Positions 2,116 through 26,014 of a stretch of DNA of 64,000 nt are shown one piece after another (the first letter of the stretch is position 1; the number at the start of each line of letters is the position of its first letter). The stretch is from Chitinophaga pinensis (GTDB lineage: Bacteria > Bacteroidota > Bacteroidia > UKL13-3): assembly GCA_945873755.1 (NCBI GenBank), contig CAMCEM010000003.1, positions 1,085 to 65,084 of the forward strand, in the 5' to 3' direction. Position numbers and translations under genes: made by a program. The notes under the pieces were generated by a model. That model worked only from the letters and a program-made list of their open reading frames with translations, was not told the origin of the DNA and searched no databases.

Positions 2116-2121
2116 AATTTA

Positions 2122-2973: not shown

Positions 2974-2975
2974 TA

Positions 2976-4280: not shown

Positions 4281-4290
4281 AATTGATATT

Positions 4291-7259: not shown

Positions 7260-7277
7260 TAATATAGTTTTTACTTT

Positions 7278-8587: not shown

Positions 8588-8595
8588 AATATTTA

Positions 8596-9420: not shown

Positions 9421-9422
9421 TT

Positions 9423-10652
9423 TTGAATAAAAATATAAAACACTTTTTAATTTATGGAATTAATTTTTCGCCTGAATTAACAGGAATTGGACGTTATAGT
9501 GGGGAAATGGTTGAATGGTTAGTAAGTAAAAATATAAAATGCACTGTAGTAACTTCATTTCCATATTATCCAAATTGGCAAATACAAAAACCATATAATG
9601 GTTGGTTTTATAAAAAAGAAAAAATAAATAATGGACTACTAACTATTTACCGTTGTCCTATGTATGTTCCTAAAAATGTAAATGGAACAAAAAGAATAAT
9701 CCATGAAGCAAGCTTTTTTATTTCATCTTTATTCGTCATTATTTATTTATTATTCAAACCCAAAATAGCAAATATTTTTTGCGTAGCCCCACCATTTCAT
9801 TTAGGTTTAGTAGCAATTTTTTATAAATTTTTTAAAGGAGGAAAGATTTATTATCATATTCAAGATTTGCAAATTGAAGCAGCAAAAAATTTAAATATGG
9901 TTAAACAAAAATATTTATTGAATTTATTTGAAGTATTAGAAAAATTTATATTAAAATATGTTGATGAAATAAGTTCGATAAGTTTTGATATGGTTAATAA
10001 AATTGAATTAAAAGTAAAAAAGAATGTTGTTTTGTTTCCAAATTGGGTTGATTGTAATTTTTATTATCCTATTCAAAATTCTAATATAAATAGATATAAA
10101 TGGGGTTTTAATGAAAACCAAAAAATAATATTGTATTCAGGCAGTATAGGCGAAAAACAAGGACTTGAAAAAATGTTGTTGTTAGCAAATCATTTCAAAT
10201 TACATGATGAAATTTTGTTTGTAATTGCAGGTAACGGACCTTATTTAGAAAAACTAAAACAAGAAGCAAAATCTAAAAATATATTAAATTTAAAATTCCT
10301 TCCACTTCAACCTAATAATATTTTTAACGAATTTTTAAATATGGTAGATATCCATATAATATTTCAAAAAAAAAATACAGGTCAATTAGTAATGCCAAGT
10401 AAATTAACAACAATATTGGCGGTTGGAGGTTTAACATTAATTAATGCAGATAAAGATTCGAGTTTACACAAATTAATAACTGAAAATGAAATTGGATTTT
10501 CAGTTAATTCTGAAAACATAAATGATTTAATTATTAAATTAGAGAATATTTTTACTTTGAACAATAGCACAGTAAAAGCGAATGCTAGAAAATATGCTGA
10601 AAAGGAATTAGATAAAGTAAATTTACTTTCTAACTTTTTTATTAATAAATAA
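9423..10652 (+). CDS. WcaI-like glycosyltransferase (GT4)
   Basis: N-terminal 'YGINFSPELTGIGRYSGEMVEWL' is typical of the WcaI family. TTG start. Confidence 0.75.
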   Translation: MNKNIKHFLIYGINFSPELTGIGRYSGEMVEWLVSKNIKCTVVTSFPYYPNWQIQKPYNGWFYKKEKINNGLLTIYRCPMYVPKNVNGTKRIIHEASFFISSLFVIIYLLFKPKIANIFCVAPPFHLGLVAIFYKFFKGGKIYYHIQDLQIEAAKNLNMVKQKYLLNLFEVLEKFILKYVDEISSISFDMVNKIELKVKKNVVLFPNWVDCNFYYPIQNSNINRYKWGFNENQKIILYSGSIGEKQGLEKMLLLANHFKLHDEILFVIAGNGPYLEKLKQEAKSKNILNLKFLPLQPNNIFNEFLNMVDIHIIFQKKNTGQLVMPSKLTTILAVGGLTLINADKDSSLHKLITENEIGFSVNSENINDLIIKLENIFTLNNSTVKANARKYAEKELDKVNLLSNFFINK

Positions 10653-10680
10653 AGATAATTTAATATTAAAGTAATCATTT

Positions 10681-11313
10681 GTGAACAAAAAATATTTTTA
10701 TTCGAATGTTTTGAAAAATATAAAAATAAAATCTGCTGTTGCATTAGTATTTGCATTTAGTTCAATTTTTTCATGTAAAATAATTGCACAATCAAATAAT
10801 GATTACGAAAAAAAACCTTGGCTTATATCGTTTGGCGTCAACTCAATTTTTGAAGACAGAGATCAATTTGTAAGGTACGTTAATAATGAATCTATTTTAT
10901 GGAATATCAGTCCAATTACATTTGGAGTTGAAAAACGTGTTAATTACTTCATAGGATTAAGTGGGATTATAGGTTCAAATCAATATCCAGAAAATCAAAG
11001 AATAAATGGATTAAGTATAGAACAAGTAAAAGATATTATTTTTATTGATCTTAATACTAAATTCAATTTAGTTCCTTTACTTGAATACAAAACTTTTTTC
11101 GATCCATATTTTGTTGCTGGTGTTGGATATTTGAACAGAAGTGTAAATAATGAAATAGCTATAAATTTAGGATTTGGCTTTAACTATTGGTTAAATAAAA
11201 ATTATGCTTTTAATGTAGGTGGTTCTTATAAGTTTAACAGAGGAATTGAATCAGAAGTTAAAGAAGGCGATTTCCTTCAATTAAATTTAATGTTAATTCA
11301 AGTAATAAATTAA
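10681..11313 (+). CDS. Small outer-membrane beta-barrel-like protein
   Basis: Signal peptide; alternating amphipathic beta-strand pattern with G/Y/F-rich strands ('FVAGVGYLN', 'INLGFGFNYW', 'FNVGGSYKF'). GTG start. Confidence 0.5.
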   Translation: MNKKYFYSNVLKNIKIKSAVALVFAFSSIFSCKIIAQSNNDYEKKPWLISFGVNSIFEDRDQFVRYVNNESILWNISPITFGVEKRVNYFIGLSGIIGSNQYPENQRINGLSIEQVKDIIFIDLNTKFNLVPLLEYKTFFDPYFVAGVGYLNRSVNNEIAINLGFGFNYWLNKNYAFNVGGSYKFNRGIESEVKEGDFLQLNLMLIQVIN

Positions 11314-11419
11314 GTTGTTGTTTTTTAATTAACAAAAGCATAACAATAAGTTCGAATCAACAAAACTATTTGCTAACATTACTAAGTTACTATTGCAGAT
11401 TATATTAATTAATTGAGTA

Positions 11420-12808
11420 ATGGGAAAAATATTTCATAAAAATTCTGTTTATATTTTTTTATTGCGAATTTTCATTCTTTTATCAGATTTAATTGGATTG
11501 AATCTGATAATTTGGTTTTTTCAAGTTTTACTTGGATATAAATTTATTGTAAACTATAATTATCAAGAATTAAATTGGTTAATTTTTTCATTCAATTTTA
11601 GTTGGATTTTTCTATCTTACTTCTTCAAAACATACATTAAAAGTTTTCAAATTATTTACAATTTAAAGTCTACTTTTAATTTATTTATTGTTCATTCATT
11701 TATAAATGTTTTAATAATTAATTTCTTTTTCTATAGTTTAATTGAATTTAAAATAATTTTATTTTATGCTGTTTCAGTTGTTTTGTTTTTACCACTATCT
11801 CGTTATTTTATAAGTTTTTATTTAAATAAATTAGATAAAACTATACATTTAAGAAAAAGAGTTTCAATACTTGGTAATGGACCTCTTTACCCTAAATTAT
11901 TTGAATATTTAAATTCAGAAGATTCTGGATTTAAATTAGTACCAATTTTACCTAAAATTAGCGCTGAAAAAGTTAATTTAGAAATTTTTATTAATGCAAT
12001 TAATTTAGCTAAAAAGCACGATGTAACTGAAATTTATTCAACAATTACGCCTGTTGATGATAATATGCACATCAGAGTGGTTCACTTAGCCGAAAACGAA
12101 TTCATTAGGTTTAAATTCGTTCCCGATTTTAATGTAGTTCTTAAAAATCATTTTAAAGTAAGAGTAAAATCGCAAGTACTTGAAGTAAATTATACAAGAG
12201 AACCATTAGAAGAATTAGACAATAGAATAAGAAAAAGATTTTTTGATTTGCTTGTCAGTTCATTGGTTATTATACTTATTTTAAGTTGGTTATACCCAAT
12301 TATCGCATTGTTAATAAAGTTAGATTCTAAAGGTTCGGTTTTATTTAAACAATTAAGAAGTGGAAGAAAAAATAAACCATTTGTTTGTTTAAAATTTAGA
12401 ACAATGATTCCAAACGAAGAACAGGATTCGAAACAAGCCACTAAAAACGATTATAGATTTACAAAATTTGGTACATTTTTAAGAAAAACTAATCTTGATG
12501 AATTACCACAATTCATTAATGTTTTTTTAGGTCAAATGAGTGTTATTGGTCCAAGGCCTCATATGTTAAATCATACAAAACAATATGGTGAATTAGTTGA
12601 CTCGTACATGCAACGTCATTTTATAAAACCAGGAATTAGTGGTTGGGCTCAAATTAATGGTTTAAGAGGTAATTTAGATCAAAAAATGATGGAACTAAGG
12701 GTAAAATACGATTTGCATTATATTAAAAATTGGTCAGTTTGGAGCGATATAGATATAATGTATAAAACTTTTATAATTACTTTAGTTGGAGATGATAACG
12801 CGTATTAA
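11420..12808 (+). CDS. Initiating polyprenyl-phosphate sugar phosphotransferase (WbaP/WcaJ-type bacterial sugar transferase)
   Basis: C-terminal catalytic domain with 'FRTM', 'TKFGTFLRKTNLDELPQFINVFLGQMSVIGPRPH' and 'KPGISGWAQING'. N-terminal transmembrane helices. Confidence 0.9.
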   Translation: MGKIFHKNSVYIFLLRIFILLSDLIGLNLIIWFFQVLLGYKFIVNYNYQELNWLIFSFNFSWIFLSYFFKTYIKSFQIIYNLKSTFNLFIVHSFINVLIINFFFYSLIEFKIILFYAVSVVLFLPLSRYFISFYLNKLDKTIHLRKRVSILGNGPLYPKLFEYLNSEDSGFKLVPILPKISAEKVNLEIFINAINLAKKHDVTEIYSTITPVDDNMHIRVVHLAENEFIRFKFVPDFNVVLKNHFKVRVKSQVLEVNYTREPLEELDNRIRKRFFDLLVSSLVIILILSWLYPIIALLIKLDSKGSVLFKQLRSGRKNKPFVCLKFRTMIPNEEQDSKQATKNDYRFTKFGTFLRKTNLDELPQFINVFLGQMSVIGPRPHMLNHTKQYGELVDSYMQRHFIKPGISGWAQINGLRGNLDQKMMELRVKYDLHYIKNWSVWSDIDIMYKTFIITLVGDDNAY

Positions 12809-12827
12809 AAAAAATTATTTGTTAACT

Positions 12828-15701
12828 ATGAATTTAAAAGGCATACTATTATTTATTTTTACATTTTTATGGTTTTACTCTTTTTCTCAAACAGGTAAAA
12901 TAGCAGGAAGAGTTATTTCTTCTAAAGGAGAAGGCTTAATAAGTGCTGTAGTTACTATTAGTTTAGGCGAATTTACTAAACCTATACAAACTGATTACAA
13001 TGGCGATTTTAAATTCAATGATTTAAAGCCAGGTAAATACAAAGTAATGGCCAAATATGTTGGTTTTGATAATACTGTACTTGAAAATATTGAAGTTATT
13101 GCGGGTCAAACAACTCCATTAAATATTGTACTTTTTGAAAAACAAAAAACATTAAAAGACATAACAATTAAAGGTAAAGTTAAAAGAGACAATGTAAGTG
13201 CATTGCTAATAATGCAAAAAAATGCTGCTTCCGTTGGTGATGCAATTTCAGCAGAGGCAATAAAAAGAAGTCCAGATAAAAGTACTAGTGATGTTTTAAA
13301 ACGCGTTAGTGGAGCAAGTATACAGGATAATAAGTTTGCTATTATTAGAGGTTTAAATGAGCGTTATAATTCTGCATATTTAAATGGTTCACCACTTCCT
13401 AGCTCAGAATCAGATAGGAAAGCTTTTGCATTCGATATTTTTCCTTCAAATATGCTAGATAATTTAGTTATTACTAAAACTGCTACGCCTGATCAAACTG
13501 GCGAATTTGCTGGAGGAATAATATTAATTAATACCAAAAATATTCCTGACGAAAACTTTCAATCTTTTAGTTTTGGATTAGGATATAATAATTTAACTAC
13601 CTTTAAAGAAAAATTAACCTATAAAGGAGGTTCCTTGGATTTTTTAGGTTTAGATGATGGAACAAGGGGTGTTCCTAAAAATTTACCTGCATTAAATAAT
13701 TGGCCAGGTGATAGAGCTGGAAAAGCACAAGCAGCTAAACTTATGCCAAATGATTGGGGTGCTATAAGTAGTGTTTTTGGACCTTCTGTTTCATTACAAT
13801 ACACAATAGGAAAATCTTTTAAAATAAAAAAGAAAGAGGCTTTAGGTTTGCTTTTTTCATTAACATATTCCAACACTCCAAACAGATATGATCAATACTT
13901 ATATGGTTATGACCAAAATGATGAAAATAAAATTCAAACCAATTTAAAAGATATTAACTATACTGAAAGAATTTTAGCCGGTGCTTTATTAAATCTATCT
14001 TTTAAAGTTAATGAAAACAATAAAATTAGTTTTAAAAATATTTATAGTATTAATTCTGAAGATAGAGTTGTTAGAAGGATAGGTGCATTCAACTTAAATC
14101 AAATAGACCCACTAAGAACAGAGTCAAATTTATTTTGGTTTACTTCAAATGAAATATTGACAAATCAATTAAATTCAGAACATTATATTCCCAAAACCAA
14201 AACAAAAGTTAATTTATTAATTTCAAACGGAAATGTATCGAGGTTAACACCCGGAATGAGAAGGTTATTATATACTGCCGGAACTGGAGAAAAGTTTCAA
14301 GCAAATATTGTTACTAATGCCGATTTTGCTGCATCTACTGGTGGTACATATCTTTATACTACTATAAATGAAAATGTTAAAAGTGCTCAAGCAGATTTTA
14401 GTCAAAATTTTGATTTTAATAAAAATTTTAAAAATAATGTTAAAATAGGTTTTAATTTTCAAAGTAGAAATAGAGATTTTAAAGCACGAAAACTTAACTT
14501 AGCTAAATATCAACAAACTGGAGGTGGTGGTGTAGAATTTGCAGACTCACTGCTTTTTTTGAATGATAAAGAGATTTTTTTACCTCAAAATATAGGAATT
14601 CTTCCAGGAGGAAAAGGTGGATTCATGTTAGAACAAATAATAAATCCTTACGATGCCTATGATGCAAGTGCAAACGTTTTTGCAAGGTATTTTATGGTTG
14701 ATACTAAAATTGGAGCAAGATTAAGAGCTATTTGGGGAAGCAGATTAGAAACATTTTATTTAACCTTAAACTCAACAAGAGATGATCGTTCATTGATTCG
14801 TTTGAATACTGTTAAATATGATTTTTTACCTTCAATTAATTTTGTTTATTCTTTAAATGAAAAACAGAATTTAAGATTTTCTTATTCTGAAACAGTAAAT
14901 AGACCTGAATTTAGAGAATTGGCTCCATTTGTTTTTTATGACTTTACAAATAGGTATACTTATTCTGGAAATGATACCATTGTTAGGTGTAAAATTAATA
15001 ATTTTGATTTTAGGTATGAGTACTTTCCTGGTAAAAACCAATTACTTTCAGGAAGTTTGTTTTATAAAAAGTTCGATAAACCAATTGAACAATATTCTAA
15101 TCCAAACGCTGCAAGAGAGGTTACTTATGTAAATGCTATTTCAGCTGCCAATTATGGTTTTGAATTTGAATTTAGAACGGTATTATCTTCTTTATTTAAT
15201 ACCGACTCTATTTCTTTTTTAGAGAATACTACTATTTTTACAAACTATGCTTACATATTATCAAATGTTTTAATAAACAATAAAGATTCAAATTACAGAG
15301 AAAGTTCTACTATAAGTGACTTATTTAGAACAGATGGAAGAAGACTCCAAGGCCAATCACCTTATGTATTAAATGCTGGAATTCAATATGTAGATCCCAA
15401 AAGTGGATTGGGCGCTACGTTATCTATTAACAGTGTAGGCGATAGAATTTCTATAGTTGGAAATGTTAATGAACCGAGTTTATGGGAGCAAGGCAGAACT
15501 ACAGTAGATTTGCAATTATCTAAAACTTTTTTGAATAAAAAACTTGAAATTAGGCTTAATGCAAAAGACATTTTAGTTCAAGATTTAGTATTTTACAACG
15601 ATTTGAACAACAATTCACAATTTGATTCTAGCTCTGACTTTAAAATTATTTCACGTAATTTTGGTAATGAGTTTTCTTTTTCTGCAGCTTATAAGTTCTA
15701 A
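12828..15701 (+). CDS. TonB-dependent-receptor-like outer membrane barrel with N-terminal CarboxypepD_reg domain
   Basis: Signal peptide from the ATG at 12828 ('MNLKGILLFIFTFLWFYSFSQ'). 'GKIAGRVIS...GKYKVMAKYVGF' carboxypeptidase-regulatory-like domain. Plug-like segment ('AIIRGLNERYNSAYLNGSPLPS'). C-terminal 'FSFSAAYKF' barrel terminus. No SusD-like partner follows. Confidence 0.8.
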   Translation: MNLKGILLFIFTFLWFYSFSQTGKIAGRVISSKGEGLISAVVTISLGEFTKPIQTDYNGDFKFNDLKPGKYKVMAKYVGFDNTVLENIEVIAGQTTPLNIVLFEKQKTLKDITIKGKVKRDNVSALLIMQKNAASVGDAISAEAIKRSPDKSTSDVLKRVSGASIQDNKFAIIRGLNERYNSAYLNGSPLPSSESDRKAFAFDIFPSNMLDNLVITKTATPDQTGEFAGGIILINTKNIPDENFQSFSFGLGYNNLTTFKEKLTYKGGSLDFLGLDDGTRGVPKNLPALNNWPGDRAGKAQAAKLMPNDWGAISSVFGPSVSLQYTIGKSFKIKKKEALGLLFSLTYSNTPNRYDQYLYGYDQNDENKIQTNLKDINYTERILAGALLNLSFKVNENNKISFKNIYSINSEDRVVRRIGAFNLNQIDPLRTESNLFWFTSNEILTNQLNSEHYIPKTKTKVNLLISNGNVSRLTPGMRRLLYTAGTGEKFQANIVTNADFAASTGGTYLYTTINENVKSAQADFSQNFDFNKNFKNNVKIGFNFQSRNRDFKARKLNLAKYQQTGGGGVEFADSLLFLNDKEIFLPQNIGILPGGKGGFMLEQIINPYDAYDASANVFARYFMVDTKIGARLRAIWGSRLETFYLTLNSTRDDRSLIRLNTVKYDFLPSINFVYSLNEKQNLRFSYSETVNRPEFRELAPFVFYDFTNRYTYSGNDTIVRCKINNFDFRYEYFPGKNQLLSGSLFYKKFDKPIEQYSNPNAAREVTYVNAISAANYGFEFEFRTVLSSLFNTDSISFLENTTIFTNYAYILSNVLINNKDSNYRESSTISDLFRTDGRRLQGQSPYVLNAGIQYVDPKSGLGATLSINSVGDRISIVGNVNEPSLWEQGRTTVDLQLSKTFLNKKLEIRLNAKDILVQDLVFYNDLNNNSQFDSSSDFKIISRNFGNEFSFSAAYKF

Positions 15702-15814
15702 CTAAAAATTATTTAGTTAATATTAAGTTAAATTTATAATAATACTAAAGAAATTTTATCTTTACATTTATTCGTTTTATTTGTGTCTTAATTTTTAAAC
15801 AAACAAAAATACAA

Positions 15815-18800
15815 ATGAAAAAAATCACAACAACAATTTTAGCTTTGATGATGACTGTAATAGTTATGGGTCAAACAAGAACTTTGCAATCTGTAAACTA
15901 CAGAGGTGCATTTGAACCTGGTGTTACTGCATGGACAGATGGATGGACAAACTTTAATCCAAATGCAGTATCTTACACAACTGGTATTACTACCAATGTT
16001 ACTGCTAGTATTACCAAAAATACTACTTGGTTAGCTGGAAGAACTTATTTATTAAAAGGTACTATTTATGTGAAATCAGGAGCAACTTTAACTATTCAAC
16101 CTGGTTGTATTATTAAAGGTGACGCAAATGTTTCTAACTCATGTTTAGTTGTTTCAAGAGGAGGTAAAATTAACGCTCAAGGAACAGCTGTAAATCCTAT
16201 TGTTTTTACTTCATCTAAAGATTCAGGACAAAGAAACTTAGGAGATTGGGGTGGTGTAATTCTTTTAGGAAAAGCTAGAACAAATGCAACTGGTGGTGTT
16301 GCTAACGTTGAAGGTTTAGCTGCATCTACTGATAACGAATTTGGTGGAACTGACGATGATGATAATTCAGGTGTATTCTCATATTGCCGTATAGAATTTG
16401 GTGGATATATTTTCTCGCCAGATAAAGAAATTAATGGTTTAACTATGGGTGGTGTTGGTCGTAAAACAAAAATTGATCACGTTCAAGTATCATATAATAA
16501 TGATGATGCTTTTGAATGGTTTGGTGGAACAGTTAATTGCACTCATTTAGTTGCATTTGGTAATTTAGATGATGATATGGATACAGATTTAGGTTACAGT
16601 GGAACAGTTCAATTTGGTTTAGTAATTCGTGATAAAAACTTTTTTGATGCAAGTACAGGATCTACTTCAGAAGGTTTTGAATCAGATAACGATCCAGTTG
16701 GAACAGTACGTACATTAGCTCCAAGAGTAAATGCAGTATTTTCTAATTTTACATGTGTTGGTCCTTACCGTAACGATTTATCTCAATCAATTAATGGTAA
16801 ATATGAAAGAGCTATTCGTATCAGAAGAAATTCTAGCTTGCGTATATTTAATTCTGTATTTACTGATTATAACAAAGGTTTACAATTTGATGGAACTGAC
16901 TGTATTTTAAATGGAAAAAATGGATTGTATAATGCAGTTGATTCATTAAACGCATCTGCTGTTAAATATAATGTATTTGCTAGTATTAAAAACAATGCGT
17001 ATATGGTTGGAACTTATTCAGGTGCTAGCGGTTCTTATGCTGCTGCTGCTGCTTTAACTGCTGATTCAATGTTTAATGGTATGTTAAATACTTACCAAAC
17101 TGCTTCAAACGGTTTATTTGTTGATAATATTAATACCTCTAATTTTAACATGGATTATCGCCCAGCTGTTGGTTCTCCGTTAAATTCTGGTGCTAATTTT
17201 TCTGATGTATTTATTTCATCAAGAACTAAATTAGGTTTAGGCGATGCTACAATTTCATCTCCTAACAGCGGTGATTCAGTAGAAATTGCTAGCTTGTCAG
17301 ATGTTCAAACTGCCACCATTACATGTGCAAGTATTGCAAACGCAGATTCTTACAACTGGACAACAAGTGCAAAATCAGGTGTAACTTTTGTTTCTGGTCA
17401 AGGTACTACTTCAGTTACAGTATCTTTTGCAACTAATTTAGCATCTACAATTGCAAAACCTTTATTTATTTTTGTTCAAGCTACAAACAATGCTTCAAAC
17501 ACTTTTTCAGCAAAAGATTCAATCAGAATTTCAAGATCAAAGCCTACATTTAGAATTGGTGCTTTAACTTCTAATCCAAATAATAATTTAATTGGTTATA
17601 CTTGGCAATCTGCTGCATTAACTGTTCAAGCTAGTGCTGGTCAAAAAGTAGTAAATGTTGCAAGTACAGCTGGTTTAATGCCAGGTATGCACGTTCAAAG
17701 AATTGCTGGAACTACTGCGGGTAATGTTGGAACAAGCAATGTTGTTGATGTTGTTAATAGTGCAACACAATTCACTTTAAAAAACAATATTTCAGCTAAT
17801 TTAACTACAGGTGCTATTTTAAGAGCATTTTATGTTCCTTTAAATACTTTTGGTACTACTTCTAGTTCAAACGTTTCAAGTGCAGCAACTTATACATCTA
17901 CTGCTTCTGCTTCAAGTGCGTTAACTGCTGTTACTGTTGCATCAACTAGTGGTTTAGTTGAAGGTATGTGGTTAAGAGTAGTTTCTGGAACTGGTACATT
18001 AAAAGCTGGTACTATTGTTTCTAAAATTATTGATGGTACAACATTTGTATTATCATTACCACCTTCAGTTGCTTTAAATAATGCTGTAATAGCTGGATAT
18101 CCTGTTATGAATAACTTATGCCCTTACTCAGTTACTTCTGGTTATACTACTGAGTTCGATTATACTGTTGTTTCAACTACTGCATCTAACAATATTGGAT
18201 ATAAATTTGATGTTCCTAAAAATGCACGTATTTGCCGTGTAGGAAATAATGCATTAACTGATTATTTAACAAACCCAATTAAATCTATTTTAACTACTGC
18301 TAATTCAATTGGTGTTGTATTTGATTCAGCTCACGCATCAGGTGCAATTGGAGTTACACCATACAACAATGCTGGTTTAGGTACTAAATTTAGTTTAACG
18401 GTTGGTAAAGTTAAAGCTGGCGTTTACAAAGTAACTAGTAATGGTGCTGCAGTAGCTAATTCAACAGTAAGATACACTGCAAGTGTAACTAACGGTAGTG
18501 CTGTATCATCTTATAAATGGACTATCCCTGCTACAAACGTAACTGCATTGTCAGGTATAGTTGTTGGAAACGTTGTTACAACAACTACTGATACATTATC
18601 ATTACGTTTTGATAGCACAAACAATACAGTTAAATTTAAATCTGGTTCATTAAAAGTAGAAATAATTAACAACTGTGGAACTGGAACTGGTAAGTCATTT
18701 ACTTTAAATAATACAACTACTTTAGCTAAAACTCAAGGAGAAATTGAATTACAAGAAGTAATTGAAAATGCAACTGAAGCCAATACTTTCAGCGTATATC

Positions 18801-19030
18801 CTAATCCTAACAATGGTAACTTTAACATTAACATGACTGCTGCTAATACTGAAGCTGCTGCTCAAGTTATTATTACTAATATTCTAGGTCAAGTTGTTCG
18901 TGAAATTTCATTAACTAACGATAACGGAACTATCAATTCAGAAATTAACGCTAATCTTTCAACTGGTATCTATTTTGTAAAAGTACAAGTAGGTTCAGAA
19001 GTAAATGTTGCTAAAATATCTGTAAACTAA
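15815..19030 (+). CDS. Large T9SS-secreted surface protein (beta-helix-like N-region, PKD-like modules, Por/T9SS C-terminal sorting domain)
   Basis: Signal peptide. The N-terminal about 300 aa carry 'DDAFEWFGGT' and parallel-beta-helix-like repeats. Two 'SYNWT/SYKWT' PKD-like modules. The C-terminal about 80 aa ('FSVYPNPNNGNFNINM...GIYFVKVQVGSEVNVAKISVN') are a typical T9SS CTD. Confidence 0.8.
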   Translation: MKKITTTILALMMTVIVMGQTRTLQSVNYRGAFEPGVTAWTDGWTNFNPNAVSYTTGITTNVTASITKNTTWLAGRTYLLKGTIYVKSGATLTIQPGCIIKGDANVSNSCLVVSRGGKINAQGTAVNPIVFTSSKDSGQRNLGDWGGVILLGKARTNATGGVANVEGLAASTDNEFGGTDDDDNSGVFSYCRIEFGGYIFSPDKEINGLTMGGVGRKTKIDHVQVSYNNDDAFEWFGGTVNCTHLVAFGNLDDDMDTDLGYSGTVQFGLVIRDKNFFDASTGSTSEGFESDNDPVGTVRTLAPRVNAVFSNFTCVGPYRNDLSQSINGKYERAIRIRRNSSLRIFNSVFTDYNKGLQFDGTDCILNGKNGLYNAVDSLNASAVKYNVFASIKNNAYMVGTYSGASGSYAAAAALTADSMFNGMLNTYQTASNGLFVDNINTSNFNMDYRPAVGSPLNSGANFSDVFISSRTKLGLGDATISSPNSGDSVEIASLSDVQTATITCASIANADSYNWTTSAKSGVTFVSGQGTTSVTVSFATNLASTIAKPLFIFVQATNNASNTFSAKDSIRISRSKPTFRIGALTSNPNNNLIGYTWQSAALTVQASAGQKVVNVASTAGLMPGMHVQRIAGTTAGNVGTSNVVDVVNSATQFTLKNNISANLTTGAILRAFYVPLNTFGTTSSSNVSSAATYTSTASASSALTAVTVASTSGLVEGMWLRVVSGTGTLKAGTIVSKIIDGTTFVLSLPPSVALNNAVIAGYPVMNNLCPYSVTSGYTTEFDYTVVSTTASNNIGYKFDVPKNARICRVGNNALTDYLTNPIKSILTTANSIGVVFDSAHASGAIGVTPYNNAGLGTKFSLTVGKVKAGVYKVTSNGAAVANSTVRYTASVTNGSAVSSYKWTIPATNVTALSGIVVGNVVTTTTDTLSLRFDSTNNTVKFKSGSLKVEIINNCGTGTGKSFTLNNTTTLAKTQGEIELQEVIENATEANTFSVYPNPNNGNFNINMTAANTEAAAQVIITNILGQVVREISLTNDNGTINSEINANLSTGIYFVKVQVGSEVNVAKISVN

Positions 19031-19056
19031 TTATAGTTTTTTAATAATAATTATTG

Positions 19057-19087
19057 AAAACCCTCAACTTATGTTGAGGGTTTTTTT
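19057..19087 (+). terminator. Rho-independent terminator after the T9SS cargo gene
   Basis: 'aaaaCCCTCAACttatGTTGAGGGttttttt': 8-bp GC-containing stem, 4-nt loop, 7-T tail, 27 nt after the stop codon. Confidence 0.8.
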
Positions 19088-19140: not shown

Positions 19141-19875
19141 ATGAAACAGAGTTTACTTTTTATATTAATATTATCAATTTTAACATCTTGCACCAAAGAT
19201 TCAAACACTATAATAGTTGAAACGAAACCTTATACTCCAAACCACAATACTTTTATAACCGAAACAAATGAAAATTTGATAAAAACTACCTATAAATATT
19301 CAACTATTTGGAGGTTAACTGAAATTCAAACATTTGATAACGAAGTTCCAACTGAAAAAATAAGTATTACATACAACAATAATTTGGTAACCAAAGCAAG
19401 TAATAAAAACAATACTTCGTACAAATATTATTTAAATAAAAAACGGTTGGCCGATAGTTTAAAAATAAATGTAATTGGTTTGTTAAGTATTACAGAATTG
19501 TATAAGTACGATATAAATGGATACATAATCAGAAAAGATATCAATGCTTTAATAAATAATGTTCCTTACGAAGAATATACTGATTATACAATAAAGAATG
19601 GAAATATAATTAAATCGGTTCAAACCACCGATACAGATGTTTTTACCACCGATTTTGAATATTATGAAGATTCGACCAATGTTTTGGCAGGTACTTTAGA
19701 AGCCATTTCTTTTATTCCACAAAGTAAAAATTTACTAAAGAAAGAATCATTTAGCGATGAAACATTTAACGAATATACTTATTTAGTTAATGAAGCTGGT
19801 GACTTAGAAATAACAATTGTAAATGAGTTTGGCGATATTAAACAACGAATTGTAACTACTACTAAAATTAAATAA
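19141..19875 (+). CDS. Hypothetical lipoprotein
   Basis: Lipobox 'LTSC' after a hydrophobic signal sequence. No recognisable domain. Confidence 0.6.
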   Translation: MKQSLLFILILSILTSCTKDSNTIIVETKPYTPNHNTFITETNENLIKTTYKYSTIWRLTEIQTFDNEVPTEKISITYNNNLVTKASNKNNTSYKYYLNKKRLADSLKINVIGLLSITELYKYDINGYIIRKDINALINNVPYEEYTDYTIKNGNIIKSVQTTDTDVFTTDFEYYEDSTNVLAGTLEAISFIPQSKNLLKKESFSDETFNEYTYLVNEAGDLEITIVNEFGDIKQRIVTTTKIK

Positions 19876-19956
19876 TACCTTAAATAATTCATAAATAGTT
19901 AACGCTTTAGTAACTTTAGATTTTTATTTTTGACAATTATTCTGTAAATTAATTTA

Positions 19957-20652
19957 ATGAAAACCCTATTTTTTTGTTTGTTTATGCTAGTTTTTGCTTT
20001 ATTTAGCAAGGCTGGAAATCAATCATCAAAAGAGGATTCAATTAAAATTGAAACAATAAACTTTGGTGTTTCATTAGGAATTGGTACAAATGGTTACAAT
20101 GGAAATATACAAAGTCAAATTAGCCAGAAATTTGGTATAAGATTAGGTTATTCGAAAGGATACTATGATCCGCAATATTATACAGTATTTAGTGGCAACT
20201 CTATTAATGTTGTAGCTAACTTTACTGTAGAATTGTTTAATTTTCAAGTAGATTATTTTCCGTTTAAAAATAAAATATTTAGAATTACAGCAGGAATTTC
20301 AAAAAATTTTAATACTTATTTGGTTAATATTACACCACTTACAAGTCAAACATTTGGATACATAAGTTATCCTCCAGAATCGATTGGGAATTTGCAAGCG
20401 AAAGTTATTGTTGATGAAATTAATCCTTATTTAGGCATTGGGTTTGGTAAAACAATTCCTAATACTAAATTTGGAATGGGTGTTGATTTTGGTTTGTACT
20501 ATCATGGTTCACCAAAGTTTATTTTAATTACAAATGGTTCTTTTGAGCCAAGTAATAATTCTAAAAACATATCATTATTAAATAATGCATTTAATGATTT
20601 TGTTTTTTTTCCCTTGGCAAATTTTAATATTGTTTACAGAATTACTAATTAA
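19957..20652 (+). CDS. Secreted beta-rich (barrel-like) protein, stand-alone copy of the C-terminal module of the 20658 gene
   Basis: Signal peptide. From 'FGIRLGYSKGYYDPQYYTVFSGNSINVV' onward it is near-identical in protein, and largely in DNA, to residues encoded at about 22425-23024. Confidence 0.65.
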   Translation: MKTLFFCLFMLVFALFSKAGNQSSKEDSIKIETINFGVSLGIGTNGYNGNIQSQISQKFGIRLGYSKGYYDPQYYTVFSGNSINVVANFTVELFNFQVDYFPFKNKIFRITAGISKNFNTYLVNITPLTSQTFGYISYPPESIGNLQAKVIVDEINPYLGIGFGKTIPNTKFGMGVDFGLYYHGSPKFILITNGSFEPSNNSKNISLLNNAFNDFVFFPLANFNIVYRITN

Positions 20653-20657
20653 TACAA

Positions 20658-23024
20658 ATGAAATTTAAACTGATAATTGTACTTTTTACTTTGTTATTTA
20701 TAAATGCTTGTAATTTTAATGAAGGAGAAAATGAAAATAATCAAACTAATTCAGATTCTATTGTTGTAAATACAACTATTAAAGCAATATTTAGTACTGA
20801 AGACTCATTGTCTGAAAAAAATATTTCTGTATCAATAATTGGAAAAGATGCTGAACATATTTTTGATGTGGAAGGTAAAACTAATTATAAAGTAGAAAAT
20901 GGTGTATTAAATTTATTTTTAGCTCCAGGAGTAAATCCTACTAACGAAAATCCATTAACCTTTACCATACAAGCCAATATGGAAGGTTATTTACCAATAA
21001 AACAAGAAGTTTTTGTATATAATAACACTGAAAAAGTTTCAGTAAACTGCATCTTTAAAAAACCTATTATTTTAAATAAAGAACAAAAAAAGGAAGCTAC
21101 TTTAATTGAAAAAAATAAAAACAAAACGGATACAAAAGTAAATTCAAATTCACCTCAAGTTTTTCCTAAAGCAGAGGTAAAAAAACCAACTATAACTACA
21201 GAAGTAAAAAACAAACCAACTCCAACAGAAAAAAAGATTGTTGATGTTAAAACAAAAGTAAATTCACCTAAAGTTTCAACAAAAACAGAGGTAAAGAAAC
21301 CAACTATCACTACAGAACAAAAAAAGGATGTTATTCCTGTTGAAAAAAAGATTGTTAAAACAGAAACAAATTTAAGTGCTAATTCACCTAAAGTTTCAAC
21401 AAAAACAGTGGTAAAGAAACCAACTATCACTACAAAAGAAAAAAACAAACCAACTCCAACAGAAAAAAAGATTGTTGACGTTAAAGCAAAAGTAAATCCA
21501 AATTCACCTAAAGTTTCACCCAAAGCAGAGGTAAAGAAACCAACCATAACTACAGAAGAAAAGAACAAATTAACTCCAGAAGAAAAAAAGATTGTTGATG
21601 TTAAAGCAAAAGTAAATTCACCTCAAGTTTCACTTAAAGCAGAGGTAAAGAAACCAACCATCACTTCAGAAGAAAAAAACAAACCAACTCCAACAGAAAA
21701 AAAGATTGTTGACGTTAAAGCAAAAGTAAATCCAAATTCACCTCAAGTTTCACCCAAAGCAGAGGTAAAGAAACCAACCATAACTTCAGAAGAAAAGAAC
21801 AAATTAACTCTAGAAGAAAAAAAGATTGTTGACGTTAAAGCAAAAGTAAATCCTGATTCACCTCAAGTTTCACTTAAAGCAGAGGTAAAGAAACCAACTA
21901 TAACTACAGAAGAAAAAAACAAACCAACTCCAACAGAAAAAAAGATTGTTGACGTTAAAGCAAAAGTAAATCCTGATTCACCTCAAGTTTCACTTAAAGC
22001 AGAGGTAAAGAAACCAACCATTACTTCAGAAGAAAAGAACAATCCAACTCCAGAAGAAAAAAAGATTGTTAAAATAGATTCAATTAATTTTGTTGTTGGT
22101 TCTAATATTGTTAAACCTAAAGTTGAAGCTCAAAAACCAACAGTTACAGTAATAAAAAAGGAGGAAATTCCTGCTAAAAAAGAGAATATTAAAACTGATA
22201 CTTTAGGAATAATTGCAAATTCAAATTCTTTATTGCCTAAAGTTGATATTAATAAACAAAAATTAAATGGAAAGCAAAAAAAGGATTCAATTAATGTTAC
22301 TAAAAAGAAAGATAACATAGATACTTTAACTTTAAATTCAAGAATAGATAGTGATACTTTTAAAATTGAAAAACAAAATGCTAGCTTAATTGCGGCACAA
22401 AATAAAGATACCATTCCTTTCAATAAAAAGAATTTAGGAATTTCACTTGGTTTGGGATCTATAGGTTATAATTTGAGTTTACACCATCAATTTAACAAAA
22501 AATTTGGTATAAGATTAGGTTATTCGAGAGGATACTATGATCCGCAATATTATACTGTATTTAGCGGGAACTCCATTAATGTTGTATCAGATTTTAATGT
22601 AGAAATGTTAAATTTTCATTTAGATTATTTTCCGTTTAAAAATAAGATATTTAGAATTACTACCGGAATTTCAAGAAATTTTAATACTTATTTGCTTAAT
22701 ATAACACCACTTACAAATCAAACATTTGGTTATATAAGTTATCCTCCAGAATCGATAGGGAATTTGCAAGTAAAAGTTACTGTTGACGAATTTAATCCTT
22801 ATTTAGGTATTGGGTTTGGTAAAACAATTCCTAATACAAAGCTTGGAATGGGTGTTGATTTTGGTTTGTACTATCATGGTTCGCCAAAGTTTAAGTTAAT
22901 AACAAAAGGTTCTTTTGAACCAAGTAACAATCAAAAAAATATTTCTTTATTGAATAATGCTTTTAACGATTGGGTATTTTTTCCTATGGCTAATATAATT
23001 ATTGTTTACAGAATTAACGATTAA
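20658..23024 (+). CDS. Modular lipoprotein: N-terminal Ig/transthyretin-like module, K/P/T/E-rich 40-aa tandem repeats, C-terminal beta-rich barrel-like module
   Basis: Lipobox 'INAC'. The N-module is shared with the 23030 gene. There are 8 well-conserved and 2 degenerate copies of 'KVNPxSPxVSxKAEVKKPTITxEEKNKPTPTEKKIVDVKA'. The C-module is shared with the 19957 gene. Confidence 0.75.
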   Translation: MKFKLIIVLFTLLFINACNFNEGENENNQTNSDSIVVNTTIKAIFSTEDSLSEKNISVSIIGKDAEHIFDVEGKTNYKVENGVLNLFLAPGVNPTNENPLTFTIQANMEGYLPIKQEVFVYNNTEKVSVNCIFKKPIILNKEQKKEATLIEKNKNKTDTKVNSNSPQVFPKAEVKKPTITTEVKNKPTPTEKKIVDVKTKVNSPKVSTKTEVKKPTITTEQKKDVIPVEKKIVKTETNLSANSPKVSTKTVVKKPTITTKEKNKPTPTEKKIVDVKAKVNPNSPKVSPKAEVKKPTITTEEKNKLTPEEKKIVDVKAKVNSPQVSLKAEVKKPTITSEEKNKPTPTEKKIVDVKAKVNPNSPQVSPKAEVKKPTITSEEKNKLTLEEKKIVDVKAKVNPDSPQVSLKAEVKKPTITTEEKNKPTPTEKKIVDVKAKVNPDSPQVSLKAEVKKPTITSEEKNNPTPEEKKIVKIDSINFVVGSNIVKPKVEAQKPTVTVIKKEEIPAKKENIKTDTLGIIANSNSLLPKVDINKQKLNGKQKKDSINVTKKKDNIDTLTLNSRIDSDTFKIEKQNASLIAAQNKDTIPFNKKNLGISLGLGSIGYNLSLHHQFNKKFGIRLGYSRGYYDPQYYTVFSGNSINVVSDFNVEMLNFHLDYFPFKNKIFRITTGISRNFNTYLLNITPLTNQTFGYISYPPESIGNLQVKVTVDEFNPYLGIGFGKTIPNTKLGMGVDFGLYYHGSPKFKLITKGSFEPSNNQKNISLLNNAFNDWVFFPMANIIIVYRIND
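21135..22082 (+). repeat. In-frame tandem repeat, about 120-bp unit (114-123 bp), about 8 copies
   Basis: The landmark 'gcagaggtaaagaaaccaac' recurs at about 21171, 21291, 21411, 21531, 21640, 21763, 21883 and 22003. The central copies are nearly identical at DNA level. Confidence 0.95.
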
Positions 23025-23029
23025 TACAA

Positions 23030-24973
23030 ATGAAATATAAATTATTACTTATACTTTTTGCTTTTGCAATCACCAATTCTTGTAGGTTTCCGAAAGAAGA
23101 AATAGAAAAGTTTGAAATAAATACAGATGCTAGCTTTGTAAATATATTACTTAAAGCTAAGTTTTACACAGAAGACTCGTTGCCTATTAGAAAAATATCA
23201 ATGAATATAAATGGAAAAGATGCCAAACATATTTTTGATATTGAAGGTAAAACTAATTTTAATGCAGAAGGAGGCGTAATAGATTTTATTTTAGGACCAA
23301 ATGCTAATCCTACTAATGACAATCCAATAACTTTTACAATTCAAGCAAATATGGAAGGCTATCTTCCTTTAAAACAAGATGTATTTGTATTTAATAGTAC
23401 CCAAAAAATTACAATTAATTGTACTTTTAAAAAACCTGTAAATATACCTACAAGCTCAAAGTATAGTTCATTATCATTAAATTTTTTAGGTAAAACAAGA
23501 TTAGACACTGCGTACTTTAATATTTTAAGAAATGATGGTGTTAATTTTACAATAAAATATCCTACAAAAGGGTTGTTTTTTCTTAAAAAAAATTCAGTAA
23601 AATTTAGGGTTGAAAACAAAGATGAATTTTTAAGTAATTTATTATTAGATACCATAAAATATAGCCCCGACAGTGGTTCTGCAATTTCAACTTTAACTAA
23701 CAAAGTTTTTAAATATAATATTAAACCTAATGAAGATAAAATAACAGTTAATCCATTAACTTTAGTTTCATCTGCAAAAAACATTACAGCAAAAGTTGGA
23801 TATCTTAAACCAAATTTAATTGCTGAATATAAATCAAGAAAAATTCCTGATACTACCAATTTAAGCAATGTTAGGGTAAATATTATTACCCAATCTAGTT
23901 TTCAAGAATTTGGTTATACTGATGAAAATGGAGTTGTTATTAATAATTATACCTCATTTAGTAATGCAGTTGGGATTCCACAAGTTTTCTTTTATGATGC
24001 TTCAACAGGAATTGCGCTAACTCCATATTATGCTGATTGTGATAATGGAGCTATTATAGAAGCCAATTTACCAATTAATAATTATAAAATTTTTATTGAT
24101 GGAATTGATTACAGCAGCAATTCTGATATGTATTTTAACACTAAAAGAGTTGTAAATATAAAACCCGATTTCTTTGAACCAAGCGGAACTGAATTTAAAT
24201 TAATTTTTAAAGACAATATGCTAAATGGGAGATTCTTTTTATTTAACAATGCAGTTAACAGTTGCGGTTTTGCAAATGTTGAAGTTAGCTCGCCTAATAT
24301 TCCTTTAAACAGAGGATTTTACGGTAAATTTAATTTAGTACATCCACAATACGATGTTACATACGATTTAGATTATTCAAAGCAAATAAATTCATACAAA
24401 GTGCCAGCTTTTGCTACATCAAATACAAGCATTAAAGTTAGTTTAAATCATCCAACTAATTTATGTAGAAACAATACTACCTTGTTTAATGAAGAAATAT
24501 TGAATACACCTTTATGTAACTATACCATTGCCCCATTAACAGTAAACTTTAACTATAATCCATCTGCTTTTTTAAGTACTATAAACGATTTTAAGGCAGT
24601 GACTGCTAATGCTAAAATTGTTTGTCCTTCGGGTAATTTTATTTTCCCACCAACCATTGATTTGTTCTTGTATCAATTAGGTTGCAATAGCGAAACAACC
24701 ATTCGATTTGAAAATGGAACTTATAACAGTCCTTCGTTAATTGAAGATAAAAAAACATACATTTTAAGATACGACAAACTATCTCAAACTGGTTTACCAA
24801 CTAAAATTTACGATACTTTATATTTTGACTCTGACGTGCCAGAGAAGATAATTAAAGACGATAAAACAGGCTATTGGGAAGGAACTTTAACTTACAATAC
24901 TACCAGTGGTTTTGAAATAGATGTTTTATTCGACAATAGAAAATTAAGGTACAATATTCCTAACTGTAAATAA
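23030..24973 (+). CDS. Large hypothetical lipoprotein sharing the N-terminal module of the 20658 gene
   Basis: Lipobox 'ITNSC'. 'GKDAKHIFDIEGKTNF...NPITFTIQANMEGYLPLKQDVFVFN' parallels 'GKDAEHIFDVEGKTNY...NPLTFTIQANMEGYLPIKQEVFVYN'. The remaining about 500 aa are unrecognised. Confidence 0.65.
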   Translation: MKYKLLLILFAFAITNSCRFPKEEIEKFEINTDASFVNILLKAKFYTEDSLPIRKISMNINGKDAKHIFDIEGKTNFNAEGGVIDFILGPNANPTNDNPITFTIQANMEGYLPLKQDVFVFNSTQKITINCTFKKPVNIPTSSKYSSLSLNFLGKTRLDTAYFNILRNDGVNFTIKYPTKGLFFLKKNSVKFRVENKDEFLSNLLLDTIKYSPDSGSAISTLTNKVFKYNIKPNEDKITVNPLTLVSSAKNITAKVGYLKPNLIAEYKSRKIPDTTNLSNVRVNIITQSSFQEFGYTDENGVVINNYTSFSNAVGIPQVFFYDASTGIALTPYYADCDNGAIIEANLPINNYKIFIDGIDYSSNSDMYFNTKRVVNIKPDFFEPSGTEFKLIFKDNMLNGRFFLFNNAVNSCGFANVEVSSPNIPLNRGFYGKFNLVHPQYDVTYDLDYSKQINSYKVPAFATSNTSIKVSLNHPTNLCRNNTTLFNEEILNTPLCNYTIAPLTVNFNYNPSAFLSTINDFKAVTANAKIVCPSGNFIFPPTIDLFLYQLGCNSETTIRFENGTYNSPSLIEDKKTYILRYDKLSQTGLPTKIYDTLYFDSDVPEKIIKDDKTGYWEGTLTYNTTSGFEIDVLFDNRKLRYNIPNCK

Positions 24974-25012: not shown

Positions 25013-25882
25013 ATGAAACTAATCAAAGAAATAAAATCATTAGTTTATAAAGCAAAAAAAAATTACAGAAATGTAGTTTTAAAACGAAAAATTAATAATT
25101 TTTACTTACTAAATAAGTCGAAAATAATCGATTCAGCACTTTTATCTTCACTTCAATATTATTTGAATAACGAGTTATCGGTATTTCCATATTTGTTTAA
25201 AAATGAATACAATAAACTGGAATTTACAGTAACCAATGAAAATGGATTTAACTATATTTTGTTTAATGGATACAAAATGTATTTTAAACAAAACTGGTCT
25301 GTTTTAAGCTGCAAAAGTTATATTAAAACATTATTGGTTGAACAAGATGCTAGATCACCTCATTGTTATTGTACAGATAATTTTTATGTAAATAACGATG
25401 AAACATTGCTAGATATTGGAGCAGCAGAAGGAAATTTTTCATTGTTATCAATTAATAAAGCCAAAGAAATTTATATGTTTGAATATAACATTGATTGGTA
25501 TAAAGCATTAGAAAAAACATTTGAACCTTTTACTGAAAAAATACAACTTTTTAATAAAAAGGTAGACAATAAATCAACTTCCAATTCAATAAAGTTAGAT
25601 GATTTACCAGAGTTATATACAAAAAAACTTTTTATTAAAATGGATGTAGAAGGAAGCGAAAAAGCCATTTTTAAAGGAATGGAAAAACTGCTTGCCACAA
25701 ATAAAAACATTAGAATAGCTGTTTGCACTTACCATGGATATAATGATGCAGTTGAATTTGAAAACTACTTTAAACAACTAGGTTTTAAAACTGAGTTTTC
25801 AACCGGTTATATGCTTTATTATTTTGCTAAAGATTTAAAACCACCATATTTAAGAAAAGGGGTATTGCGGGTTTGGAGATAA
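25013..25882 (+). CDS. FkbM-family SAM-dependent methyltransferase
   Basis: 'LLDIGAAEGNFSL' SAM-binding glycine motif and FkbM-like C-terminal half ('IKMDVEGSEKAIFKG'). Confidence 0.6.
   Translation: MKLIKEIKSLVYKAKKNYRNVVLKRKINNFYLLNKSKIIDSALLSSLQYYLNNELSVFPYLFKNEYNKLEFTVTNENGFNYILFNGYKMYFKQNWSVLSCKSYIKTLLVEQDARSPHCYCTDNFYVNNDETLLDIGAAEGNFSLLSINKAKEIYMFEYNIDWYKALEKTFEPFTEKIQLFNKKVDNKSTSNSIKLDDLPELYTKKLFIKMDVEGSEKAIFKGMEKLLATNKNIRIAVCTYHGYNDAVEFENYFKQLGFKTEFSTGYMLYYFAKDLKPPYLRKGVLRVWR

Positions 25883-25940: not shown

Positions 25941-26014
<74 letters not shown>

Follow-up and report, generated by a model that had tools for sequence, protein, structure and literature searches.

Proteins that join a membrane barrel to a second part are already known from bacterial envelopes, namely lipidated barrels (TamL) and barrel-hinge-periplasmic-domain proteins (OmpA), and so are size-variable repeat proteins. 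Examples of the latter are the streptococcal alpha C protein and mycoplasma Vlp, and spacers rich in Pro, Glu, Val, and Lys are familiar from PEVK- and TonB-type proteins. In Bacteroidota, TamL has been described as a lipidated, TamA-like Omp85 protein (bioRxiv 10.1101/2024.10.17.618404). For CarO, a small outer-membrane barrel from Acinetobacter baumannii, a role in glycine/ornithine uptake has been proposed (PMC7573547), which is not transferable to the genes described here. In this study we analyzed 64,000 nucleotides of DNA from Chitinophaga pinensis (GTDB lineage Bacteria; Bacteroidota; Bacteroidia; UKL13-3; GenBank assembly GCA_945873755.1, contig CAMCEM010000003.1, positions 1,085 to 65,084 of the forward strand), a stretch to which we refer as the window, and in it three consecutive genes designated g1, g2, and g3. 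Here, g1 codes for a stand-alone β-barrel and g3 for a large probable lipoprotein, whereas the product of the middle gene g2 combines parts of both. The reading that we favor, and regard as rather probable, is that g2 was born by duplication within a barrel-lipoprotein cassette, has been maintained as a lipoprotein-spacer-barrel chimera, and encodes a protein that is predicted to be tethered on the periplasmic side.

The duplicated segment and its modules

The three open reading frames (ORFs) stand as a previous sequence-only reading had given them, with the same coordinates and in the same direction (Table 1). Both intergenic gaps are 5 bp long, and the g1-g2 and g2-g3 gaps consist of the same pentamer, TACAA. 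Alignment of g1 with residues 583-786 of g2 (the C-module) yielded 79% amino acid identity over 204 aa (E 2e-117) and 86.6% DNA identity over 561 bp, and the position pair 20131/22503, to which the sequence-only reading had pointed, sits on this alignment with an offset of 2372. Residues 1-135 of g2 and g3 (the N-module) share ~58% amino acid identity and 73% DNA identity over 408 bp, and here the offset is 2372 bp as well. Since the offset and the pentamers are identical, the C-terminal and the N-terminal similarities represent one contiguous direct repeat of ~1 kb, which covers the 3' four-fifths of the barrel gene and whose two copies are separated by ~1.4 kb of repeat-built spacer. Both breakpoints are intragenic, whereby the segment starts in a gene A and ends in the adjacent gene B; duplication of such a segment results in the order A, B(5')::A(3') chimera, B, which is the order observed. 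Thus, the modular relationship among the three genes is real by protein and DNA alignment, but the "domain shuffling" that had been proposed for it is replaced by one tandem segmental duplication, the breakpoints of which fall within two neighboring genes. Also, the modules do not travel independently. A tandem duplication of the ~1-kb junction segment in the lineage of the window gave rise to g1, the g2 chimera, and g3.

The C-module is related to CarO by several kinds of comparison. The NCBIfam model OMP_CarO (NF038067) matched g1 with 31.6 bits (E 1e-7) and the g2 C-module with 26.9 bits (E 2.9e-6). The curated cut-off of this equivalog model is 300 bits, and as both scores are far below it, neither of the two is a CarO equivalog. 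A phmmer comparison of g1 with the CarO sequences in PDB gave an E of 3e-6, the CarO structures 4fuv, 4rlb, and 4rl9 matched a 30-member family profile at E ~1e-22 over profile positions 43-238, and the OMP_CarO model was matched by 30 of 30 sampled relatives. The AlphaFold2 (AF2) model of g1 is all-beta, with a predicted local distance difference test (pLDDT) value of 68, and Foldseek placed CarO on top (E 7e-8, probability 1.0, template modeling (TM) score 0.46-0.51), followed by OmpA, TtoA, NspA, Ail, and OmpW. Based on these matches, the C-module is best described as a distant outer-membrane barrel of the CarO superfamily, for which the strand number of eight is taken from CarO. This agreement of NCBIfam, PDB, AF2/Foldseek, and profile matches bears out the earlier suggestion of a membrane-embedded module, and structure prediction together with Foldseek yielded a membrane barrel and not a soluble domain. 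Pfam gave no match for g1, g2, or g3, OmpA_C (PF00691) being among the families not matched, and NCBIfam returned nothing beyond the weak match to OMP_CarO. The sequence-only reading had recognized no described family in the architecture of g2, which holds for the N-module but not for the C-module, although the homology of the latter to CarO is far under the family cut-off.

The N-terminus of g1 resembles a type I signal peptide with a predicted cut between …FSKA and GNQ, and the C-termini read …VYRITN in g1 and …VYRIND in g2, which makes both two residues longer than those of the relatives (…YRF, …YRIF, or …FRIY). An exhaustive profile search retrieved 2,291 barrel cluster representatives, nearly all of them stand-alone proteins of 210-250 aa, and N-extended forms are rare among them (~5 of the top 150 representatives). 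One further sequence, P0015 from a 1088-bp JGI contig, encodes 227 aa, of which the last ~67 residues are 83% identical to a g2-type barrel while the N-terminal two-thirds are unrelated; this contig is probably a metagenomic chimera and was not used as evidence.

At the N-terminus of g2, the proposed lipoprotein signal was recovered in the form of a hydrophobic leader followed by a conserved Cys18. The predicted lipobox reads MKFKLIIVLFTLLFINAC in g2 and …FAITNSC in g3, with atypical residues at positions -3 and -2. Cys18 is present in g2 and g3 and invariant in 15 of 15 aligned g3 homologues, and the lipobox is kept in all three g2 lineages. The g3 family is small (16 clusters, all ~650 aa, unannotated) and has six further conserved cysteines besides Cys18. 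The AF2 model of g3 (pLDDT 73.7) consists of a string of β-sandwich domains, and the part equivalent to the N-module is a 7-8-strand β-sandwich with a pLDDT of 70-80. When the complete g3 model was compared by Foldseek, the matches were generic multi-Ig ones only (TM ~0.1), which are uninformative, and no sequence relatives were found in PDB for g3 or for the spacer plus N-module, profile search included. The motif "…EGYLP.KQ.V.V" had made a CarboxypepD_reg-type sandwich a candidate for the N-module. This assignment, for which the families PF13620 and PF13715 were used, is not supported, since hhalign against the CarboxypepD_reg domain of the neighboring receptor gave a probability of 0.3% and only weak CarbopepD_reg_2 or PEGA matches occurred in 2 of 14 N-modules (E 0.04-0.11).

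The spacer lies at the fusion point and is composed of 22% K, 11% T, 11% V, 9% P, and 9% E, with a net charge of +42. In a charge-hydropathy plot it falls on the disordered side, whereas both flanking modules fall on the folded side. Neither Pfam nor PDB yielded a match for it. Tandem Repeats Finder reported a 120-bp period with 7.9 copies at 21133-22070. The eight intact units described before were found again, but they are not near-identical (68-92% pairwise DNA identity), and in place of two decayed copies there are probably three downstream plus one weak match upstream: ~3-4 weak matches to the unit hidden Markov model (HMM) flank the array at aa 123-152, 485-504, 521-550, and 578-591. The tail of the spacer is kept between lineages (IKTD.L…KKDS.N…KIEKQN…), with homologous tails in two related loci (L025 and L028, see below). 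The repeat unit might conceivably derive from outgroup barrels, whose N-terminal "KKDSIK…KN" segment is matched by the unit HMM, but only at a non-significant level (E 0.04).

Table 1. Positions of the genes, modules, and other features in the window.
Feature	Positions	Strand	Description
g1	19957..20652	+	231-aa stand-alone CarO-like outer-membrane β-barrel (ORF call and homology)
g2	20658..23024	+	788-aa chimera; lipoprotein signal and N-module, then repeat spacer, then complete mature barrel
g2 N-module	20658..21062	+	aa 1-135; signal peptide, predicted lipobox Cys18 (FINAC), one β-sandwich; g3 aa 1-135 is the paralogue
g2 spacer	21063..22403	+	aa 136-582, 447 aa
Repeat array	21126..22073	+	eight tandem units of 114/120 bp (38-40 aa)
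Spacer tail	22074..22403	+	~three decayed units (weak unit-HMM matches)
g2 C-module	22404..23021	+	aa 583-788; CarO-like barrel without signal peptide of its own, 79% identical to mature g1
g3	23030..24973	+	647-aa probable lipoprotein (…TNSC), all-beta, β-sandwich string, six conserved Cys
Direct repeat, copy 1	20028..21065	+	3' part of barrel gene, TACAA, first ~136 lipoprotein-type codons
Direct repeat, copy 2	22400..23437	+	g2 barrel part, TACAA, first ~136 g3 codons
g0	19141..19875	+	244-aa probable lipoprotein (…LTSC), conserved cassette neighbor
Terminator-like hairpin	19056..19085	+	strong, intrinsic-terminator-like, 13-bp stem then T run; 3' of upstream type IX secretion system cargo gene
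TATTTTTG	19925..19932	+	fits Bacteroidota -7 promoter consensus; 25 nt upstream of g1 start
FkbM-family methyltransferase	25013..25882	+	conserved neighbor downstream

Conservation of the cassette, origin of the chimera, and turnover of its repeats

All relatives of the locus, designated here by L numbers, come from metagenome-assembled genomes (MAGs) or metagenome contigs of uncultured Bacteroidota, and the readable sample names (lakes, ponds) suggest a freshwater habitat. The contigs L017, L021, and L022, whose locus is typical of Bacteroidota, were deposited under the MAG names Candidatus Methylacidiphilales, Bifidobacterium sp., and Vulcanococcus limneticus; these contigs are probably mis-binned. 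In 14 of 14 species-level genomes, and in all metagenome contigs that extend across the junction, the g3 homologue is directly preceded by the barrel gene. The adjacency persists down to 24% identity and also where the neighbors are inverted (L019, L022, L023). Judged by gene order, g3 is the ancestral partner of the barrel gene, and such strict pairing at 0-5-bp spacing argues for a functional partnership. A second, paralogous pair is found at an unrelated locus (L005, 4040-6746; also L006, L020, and L021). In L005, which belongs to the same assembly as L001 (GCA_040402875.1), it consists of a 243-aa barrel with 40% identity to g1 and a 656-aa lipoprotein with 37% identity to g3, and it adjoins a GldC-like gene. 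The existence of such paralogous pairs indicates that the cassette is a duplicable two-gene unit.

L002, L004, and L013-L018 contain the barrel and the lipoprotein gene only, and as most genomes are without g2, the two-gene form represents the ancestral state. A chimera is present in the window and in L001, L026, L027, L029, L030, L003 (the same contig as L011), L008, L009, L010, L007 with L025, and L028. The g2 N-modules of these loci form one clade in a neighbor-joining tree, read without bootstrap values, and share derived residues as well as the junction KKPI[IV]LNKEQKK..TLI[ED]KNK. Together, these three features indicate that the chimera arose once. We had also considered that outgroup barrels are closer to the C-module of g2 than to g1, but on a common alignment the difference amounts to ≤3 percentage points, and the candidate was dropped; the outgroup asymmetry is real for the N-modules only.

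L028 deserves separate mention. This 6.3-kb contig carries g0, a 612-aa chimera, g3, and the methyltransferase gene but no stand-alone barrel gene, which means that the fused form can be the sole barrel of the cassette. Its backbone is akin to L004, with identities of 77% for g0, 78-87% for g3, 71% for the barrel, and 87% for the methyltransferase, but the L004-type genomes are without chimera. The L028 N-module of g2 is 69% identical to that of the window, compared to 65% for the L007 lineage, although L007 is otherwise far nearer to the window. Either the N-module and spacer of L028 were acquired laterally or an old chimera was lost at least four times.

The sequence-only reading had expected the number of repeats to vary, and this was found to be the case, with 1, 4, 7, 8, and 10 units in close strains. 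L029 and L030, both ~99% identical to the window outside the array, harbor 10 and 7 units (g2 of 864 and 748 aa) compared to the 8 units of the window (788 aa). L026, which is 88-95% identical to the window outside the array, has 4 units (630 aa), and L027, which is close to L026, has a single unit (512 aa); these two loci share 99.86% identity, and an in-frame, three-unit indel of 354 bp accounts for their difference in unit number. L001, L003, and L008 were left out of these counts, since an N gap or contig end falls within the array. The units differ in type as well: the array of the window is built mostly of "EEKNKPTPTEKK" units and contains one "EQKKDVIPVEKK" unit, whereas in the more distant L008 all of the at least eight units are of the "EQKKDVIPVEKK" type. 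The latter is probably ancestral, because it resembles the diverged units of L028. In L001, the N-module is identical to that of the window, and the order of units differs at the 3' end of the array. These comparisons support a turnover of the array in copy number and unit type, whereby units appear to be quickly gained, lost, and homogenized. With a spacer of ~171-523 aa across strains, large changes in length are evidently tolerated. Short-read assemblies consistently break within the g2 array or insert a 100-N gap there (L001, 9508-9607; contig ends in L003, L008, and L007/L025). Public MAGs therefore contain mis-called fragments in place of g2, for instance a protein of 263 aa in L001 and a "partial" one of 343 aa in GCA_037141455.1.

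Topology and maintenance of the chimera

According to the model that we propose, g2 would be made as a lipoprotein, and its C-terminal barrel would be put into the outer membrane by the β-barrel assembly machinery. In even-stranded outer-membrane barrels both termini, and hence the N-terminus, are periplasmic, which makes a periplasmic location most likely for the spacer and for the N-module with its lipid anchor. Either end of the protein would in this case be fixed in the outer membrane, and the part in between would be a long, flexible, cationic, and length-tolerant loop of 171-523 aa. The fusion can also be read as a Rosetta stone, in that the lipid-proximal first domain of g3 and the barrel would probably cooperate at the same membrane face, and a g1-type barrel and the g3 lipoprotein would probably form a barrel-lipoprotein complex. 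The surface-export signal of Bacteroidota lipoproteins is C-X-K-(D/E)2-X, or S-D-D-x-x, at +2 to +6 and is position-critical (PMC5080379), and a by-eye comparison with that work did not locate it at +2 to +6 in g2 or g3. The g3 family starts with C-K/R-F-P-K-D/E-E, which places K-(D/E)-E at +5 to +7, i.e., displaced by two positions, and g2 of the window starts with C-N-F-N-E-G-E. In addition, one N-extended barrel relative, probably P0143, matches an AMIN-like domain, which is periplasmic. The sequence-only reading had addressed the three genes as coding for surface proteins; barrel topology and the position of the export signal speak for the periplasm instead.

Several observations weigh against our reading, some of them concerning the barrel and the duplication model. 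The AF2 model of the g1 barrel is only moderate (pLDDT 68), the C-termini of g1 and g2 are without a final aromatic residue, and the spacer, being V/T/I-rich in alternating patterns, could form β structure. The strains with the fewest units (1 and 4) are represented by short-read assemblies, in which the array may be collapsed, and the discordant phylogeny of L028 is seen in one 6.3-kb contig only. Moreover, the C-modules cluster by lineage and not by position: g1 and the g2 C-module are 78% identical within each lineage, whereas orthologues are 66% and 75% identical between lineages. To account for this clustering, gene conversion or repeated duplication has to be added to the simple model. 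The synonymous divergence (dS) between the paralogues g1 and g2 C-module (0.5-0.7; window 0.5) is lower than that between orthologues (1.2-1.9), which tentatively suggests gene conversion, the orthologue values being saturated.

The remaining points against a periplasmic location are at the same time those in favor of a surface stalk, as had been pictured by the sequence-only reading. Here, the N-module would reach the cell surface in the way of other Bacteroidota surface lipoproteins, and the array would constitute an extended, size- or antigenically variable stalk or brush anchored by the barrel, with variation driven by phage or grazer pressure or by the tuning of adhesin reach. Fast size variation of repeat arrays is more typical of surface-exposed proteins, and unit number and type do differ between near-identical strains. 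According to its model, g3 looks adhesin-like, as a string of β-sandwich domains, and the locus adjoins a type IX secretion system (T9SS) cargo gene and a polysaccharide cluster. Furthermore, an acidic cluster follows the lipidated cysteine, formed in g3 and its homologues by the displaced K-(D/E)-E and in g2 by E at +5, +7, and +9, and in L002 the product of the neighboring g0 starts with C-Q-K-D-D, a canonical export signal. However, with a periplasmic barrel N-terminus the spacer must cross the outer membrane, for which a CarO-type barrel offers no obvious channel. The position-critical signal is not found where it is required in g2 and g3, and the AMIN-like domain of the N-extended relative is of a periplasmic type. 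We therefore regard a surface stalk as possible but unlikely.

Going beyond the periplasmic tether, it is conceivable that the barrel-lipoprotein pair acts as an outer-membrane docking or display module in which the first domain of the lipoprotein binds the barrel. In that case g2 would be a natural Rosetta-stone fusion of contact partners, and N-module plus spacer would represent a laterally transferable "extension cassette" that makes a stand-alone barrel lipid-anchored and tethered, as the discordant phylogeny of L028 suggests. This proposal is speculative, and we give it only a small chance of being correct.

Another question is whether g2 has a role of its own at all or is a neutral or decaying leftover of the duplication, or even an artefact of assembly. 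Tandem duplications with intragenic breakpoints automatically yield chimeras of this kind, the array is a point of breakage or collapse in several assemblies, and homologous recombination between the duplicated parts could readily delete g2. Against this, all complete copies have an uninterrupted reading frame (512-864 aa in L026, L027, L028, L029, L030, and the window), the lipobox is conserved, g2 is the sole cassette barrel in L028, and the gene was found independently in more than eight assemblies from different projects. Between the lineage of the window and the L007/L025 lineage, the ratio of nonsynonymous (dN) to synonymous divergence is 0.20 for the N-module and 0.10 for the C-module of g2, at saturated dS (1.2-1.9). 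The g2 N-module evolves ~3x faster than that of g3 (dN 0.24 vs. 0.08) and is placed on a long branch. Judged by these substitution rates and reading frames, g2 is a maintained gene with both modules under purifying selection, and the by-product explanation is quite improbable.

Also very improbable is an envelope-spanning tether, in which the lipidated N-terminus would reside in the inner and the barrel in the outer membrane, bridged by the spacer in the manner of TonB or Lpp/OmpA-type connectors. The K/P/E/V/T composition of the spacer recalls the proline-rich region of TonB, and two membrane anchors are present on one polypeptide. However, the spacer varies between ~171 and 523 aa in close strains, which argues against a molecular ruler, and g3, the donor of the N-module, has the appearance of a lipoprotein of the outer membrane with the barrel as its partner. 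A type V-like self-export of spacer and N-module through the barrel hardly comes into consideration, since, although the passenger-linker-barrel order resembles classical autotransporters, there is no match to an autotransporter barrel family in Pfam or NCBIfam, the barrel is homologous to CarO with its 8 strands rather than to the type V barrels, which have 12 or 16, the N-terminus of g2 is predicted to be lipidated, and the same barrel normally stands alone with 210-250 aa in more than 2000 representatives.

Gene neighborhood and comparison with described systems

The cassette is preceded by g0, which adjoins the barrel gene in most related loci, inverted in some of them, and for which the Pfam search did not return a family. 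The g0 orthologue of L002 (1349-2086) starts with C-Q-K-D-D, which is exactly the published Bacteroidota surface-export signal, whereas g0 of the window starts with C-T-K-D-S and matches it in part. The hairpin upstream of g0 is likely to mark the 5' boundary of a g0-g1-g2-g3 transcription unit, and a terminator scan of the window found no comparable structure between g0 and the end of g3. Because of this arrangement, g2 can be expected to be co-transcribed with g0, g1, and g3, and the four genes very probably form one transcript. The Bacteroidota -7 promoter consensus is TAnnTTTG; motifs of the TATTTTTG type occur ~0.9 times per kb in the window, so that the copy upstream of g1 is a weak lead only. 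A sigma-70 promoter scan gave fewer sites than in shuffled sequence, as expected for Bacteroidota. On the opposite strand, ORFs of 97-169 aa overlap g2 and g3 (21155-21568, 22130-22423, and 23359-23868); being F/V/L-rich and of low complexity, they most likely exist only because the coding strand is AT-rich and repetitive.

Downstream, the methyltransferase gene is followed by a tRNA gene on the minus strand (25941-26014), which is the sole Rfam hit in the window. Upstream of g0, two genes (12786-19030) are found near the g0-barrel-g3 cassette in most related genomes, including the inverted L019, L022, and L023. The first encodes a 971-aa TonB-dependent-receptor-like protein (CarboxypepD_reg, Plug, OMP_b-brl_3) and the second a 1071-aa T9SS cargo protein (PKD-like domain, Por_Secre_tail), to which the orthologues add Beta_helix_4. 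Directly upstream of these lies a long, co-directional polysaccharide-biosynthesis cluster (44-12808) with five GT1-type and one GT2 glycosyltransferases, an Acyl_transf_3 protein, and a GT47/exostosin-like protein. Its final gene (11420-12808, 462 aa) corresponds in position and size to the Bac_transf sugar transferase of L001 and L004. The barrel-lipoprotein block may thus be part of a cell-envelope glycan locus.

The locus represents a case in which one duplication with intragenic breakpoints yielded a new multi-domain envelope gene that was kept under selection and replaced its parent in one lineage. It defines a barrel-plus-lipoprotein cassette in abundant uncultured, low-GC freshwater Bacteroidota, and more than 2000 barrel representatives, few of which have any Pfam match, can now be assigned to the CarO superfamily. 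The fusion predicts that the first domain of the lipoprotein and the barrel act jointly, and the repeat array is a ready strain marker, although it breaks short-read assemblies. What follows for the function depends on topology. A periplasmic tether, if true, would be a modest curiosity. If the N-module were displayed at the surface, such a covalent link between a lipoprotein and a small barrel would be relevant to the as yet unsolved mechanism by which lipoproteins are exported to the surface in Bacteroidota, and g2 would be a one-polypeptide model of their surface placement.

Among described proteins, CarO (4fuv, 4rl9, 4rlb) is the homologue of the barrel, similar in size (~230 aa) and with a signal peptide, such as is predicted for g1. 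However, it shares only ~19% identity and stems from another phylum, whereas the barrel described here is always paired with a large lipoprotein gene and in g2 follows a lipoprotein module and a repeat spacer within the same polypeptide. TamL has the same order of N-terminal lipoprotein anchor, periplasmic part, and C-terminal outer-membrane barrel and thus constitutes a precedent for this topology from the same phylum, but it is not homologous, has a 16-stranded Omp85 barrel with POTRA domains, and lacks a repeat spacer. OmpA and OprF resemble g2 in their small 8-stranded barrel, Pro-rich hinge, and periplasmic domain, and the OmpA barrel is among the Foldseek matches. In these proteins, however, the barrel is N-terminal, and their periplasmic domain is the peptidoglycan-binding OmpA_C, which is not matched in g1-g3. 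P0143 (497 aa), from the barrel family itself, has an N-terminal domain, a Pro/Lys-rich linker, and a C-terminal CarO-like barrel as g2 does, but it carries an ordinary signal peptide without lipobox, an unrelated N-domain, and no tandem repeats. At the level of the cassette, SusC/SusD and BtuB/BtuG are comparable, since there, too, an outer-membrane barrel gene lies side by side with a co-oriented lipoprotein gene, in a pairing conserved across genomes. These systems differ in having 22-stranded TonB-dependent barrels and surface-exposed lipoproteins with a canonical export signal, whereas the barrel of the cassette is too small for polymer transport. With regard to the spacer, units are gained and lost in frame between strains as in alpha C protein and Vlp, and low complexity, charge, Pro content, and tolerance in length are shared with PEVK/TonB-type spacers, although none of these has sequence homology to the g2 spacer. 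Compared to these systems, the combination of parts, the origin by one tandem duplication in a conserved cassette, and a possible lateral spread appear to be new.

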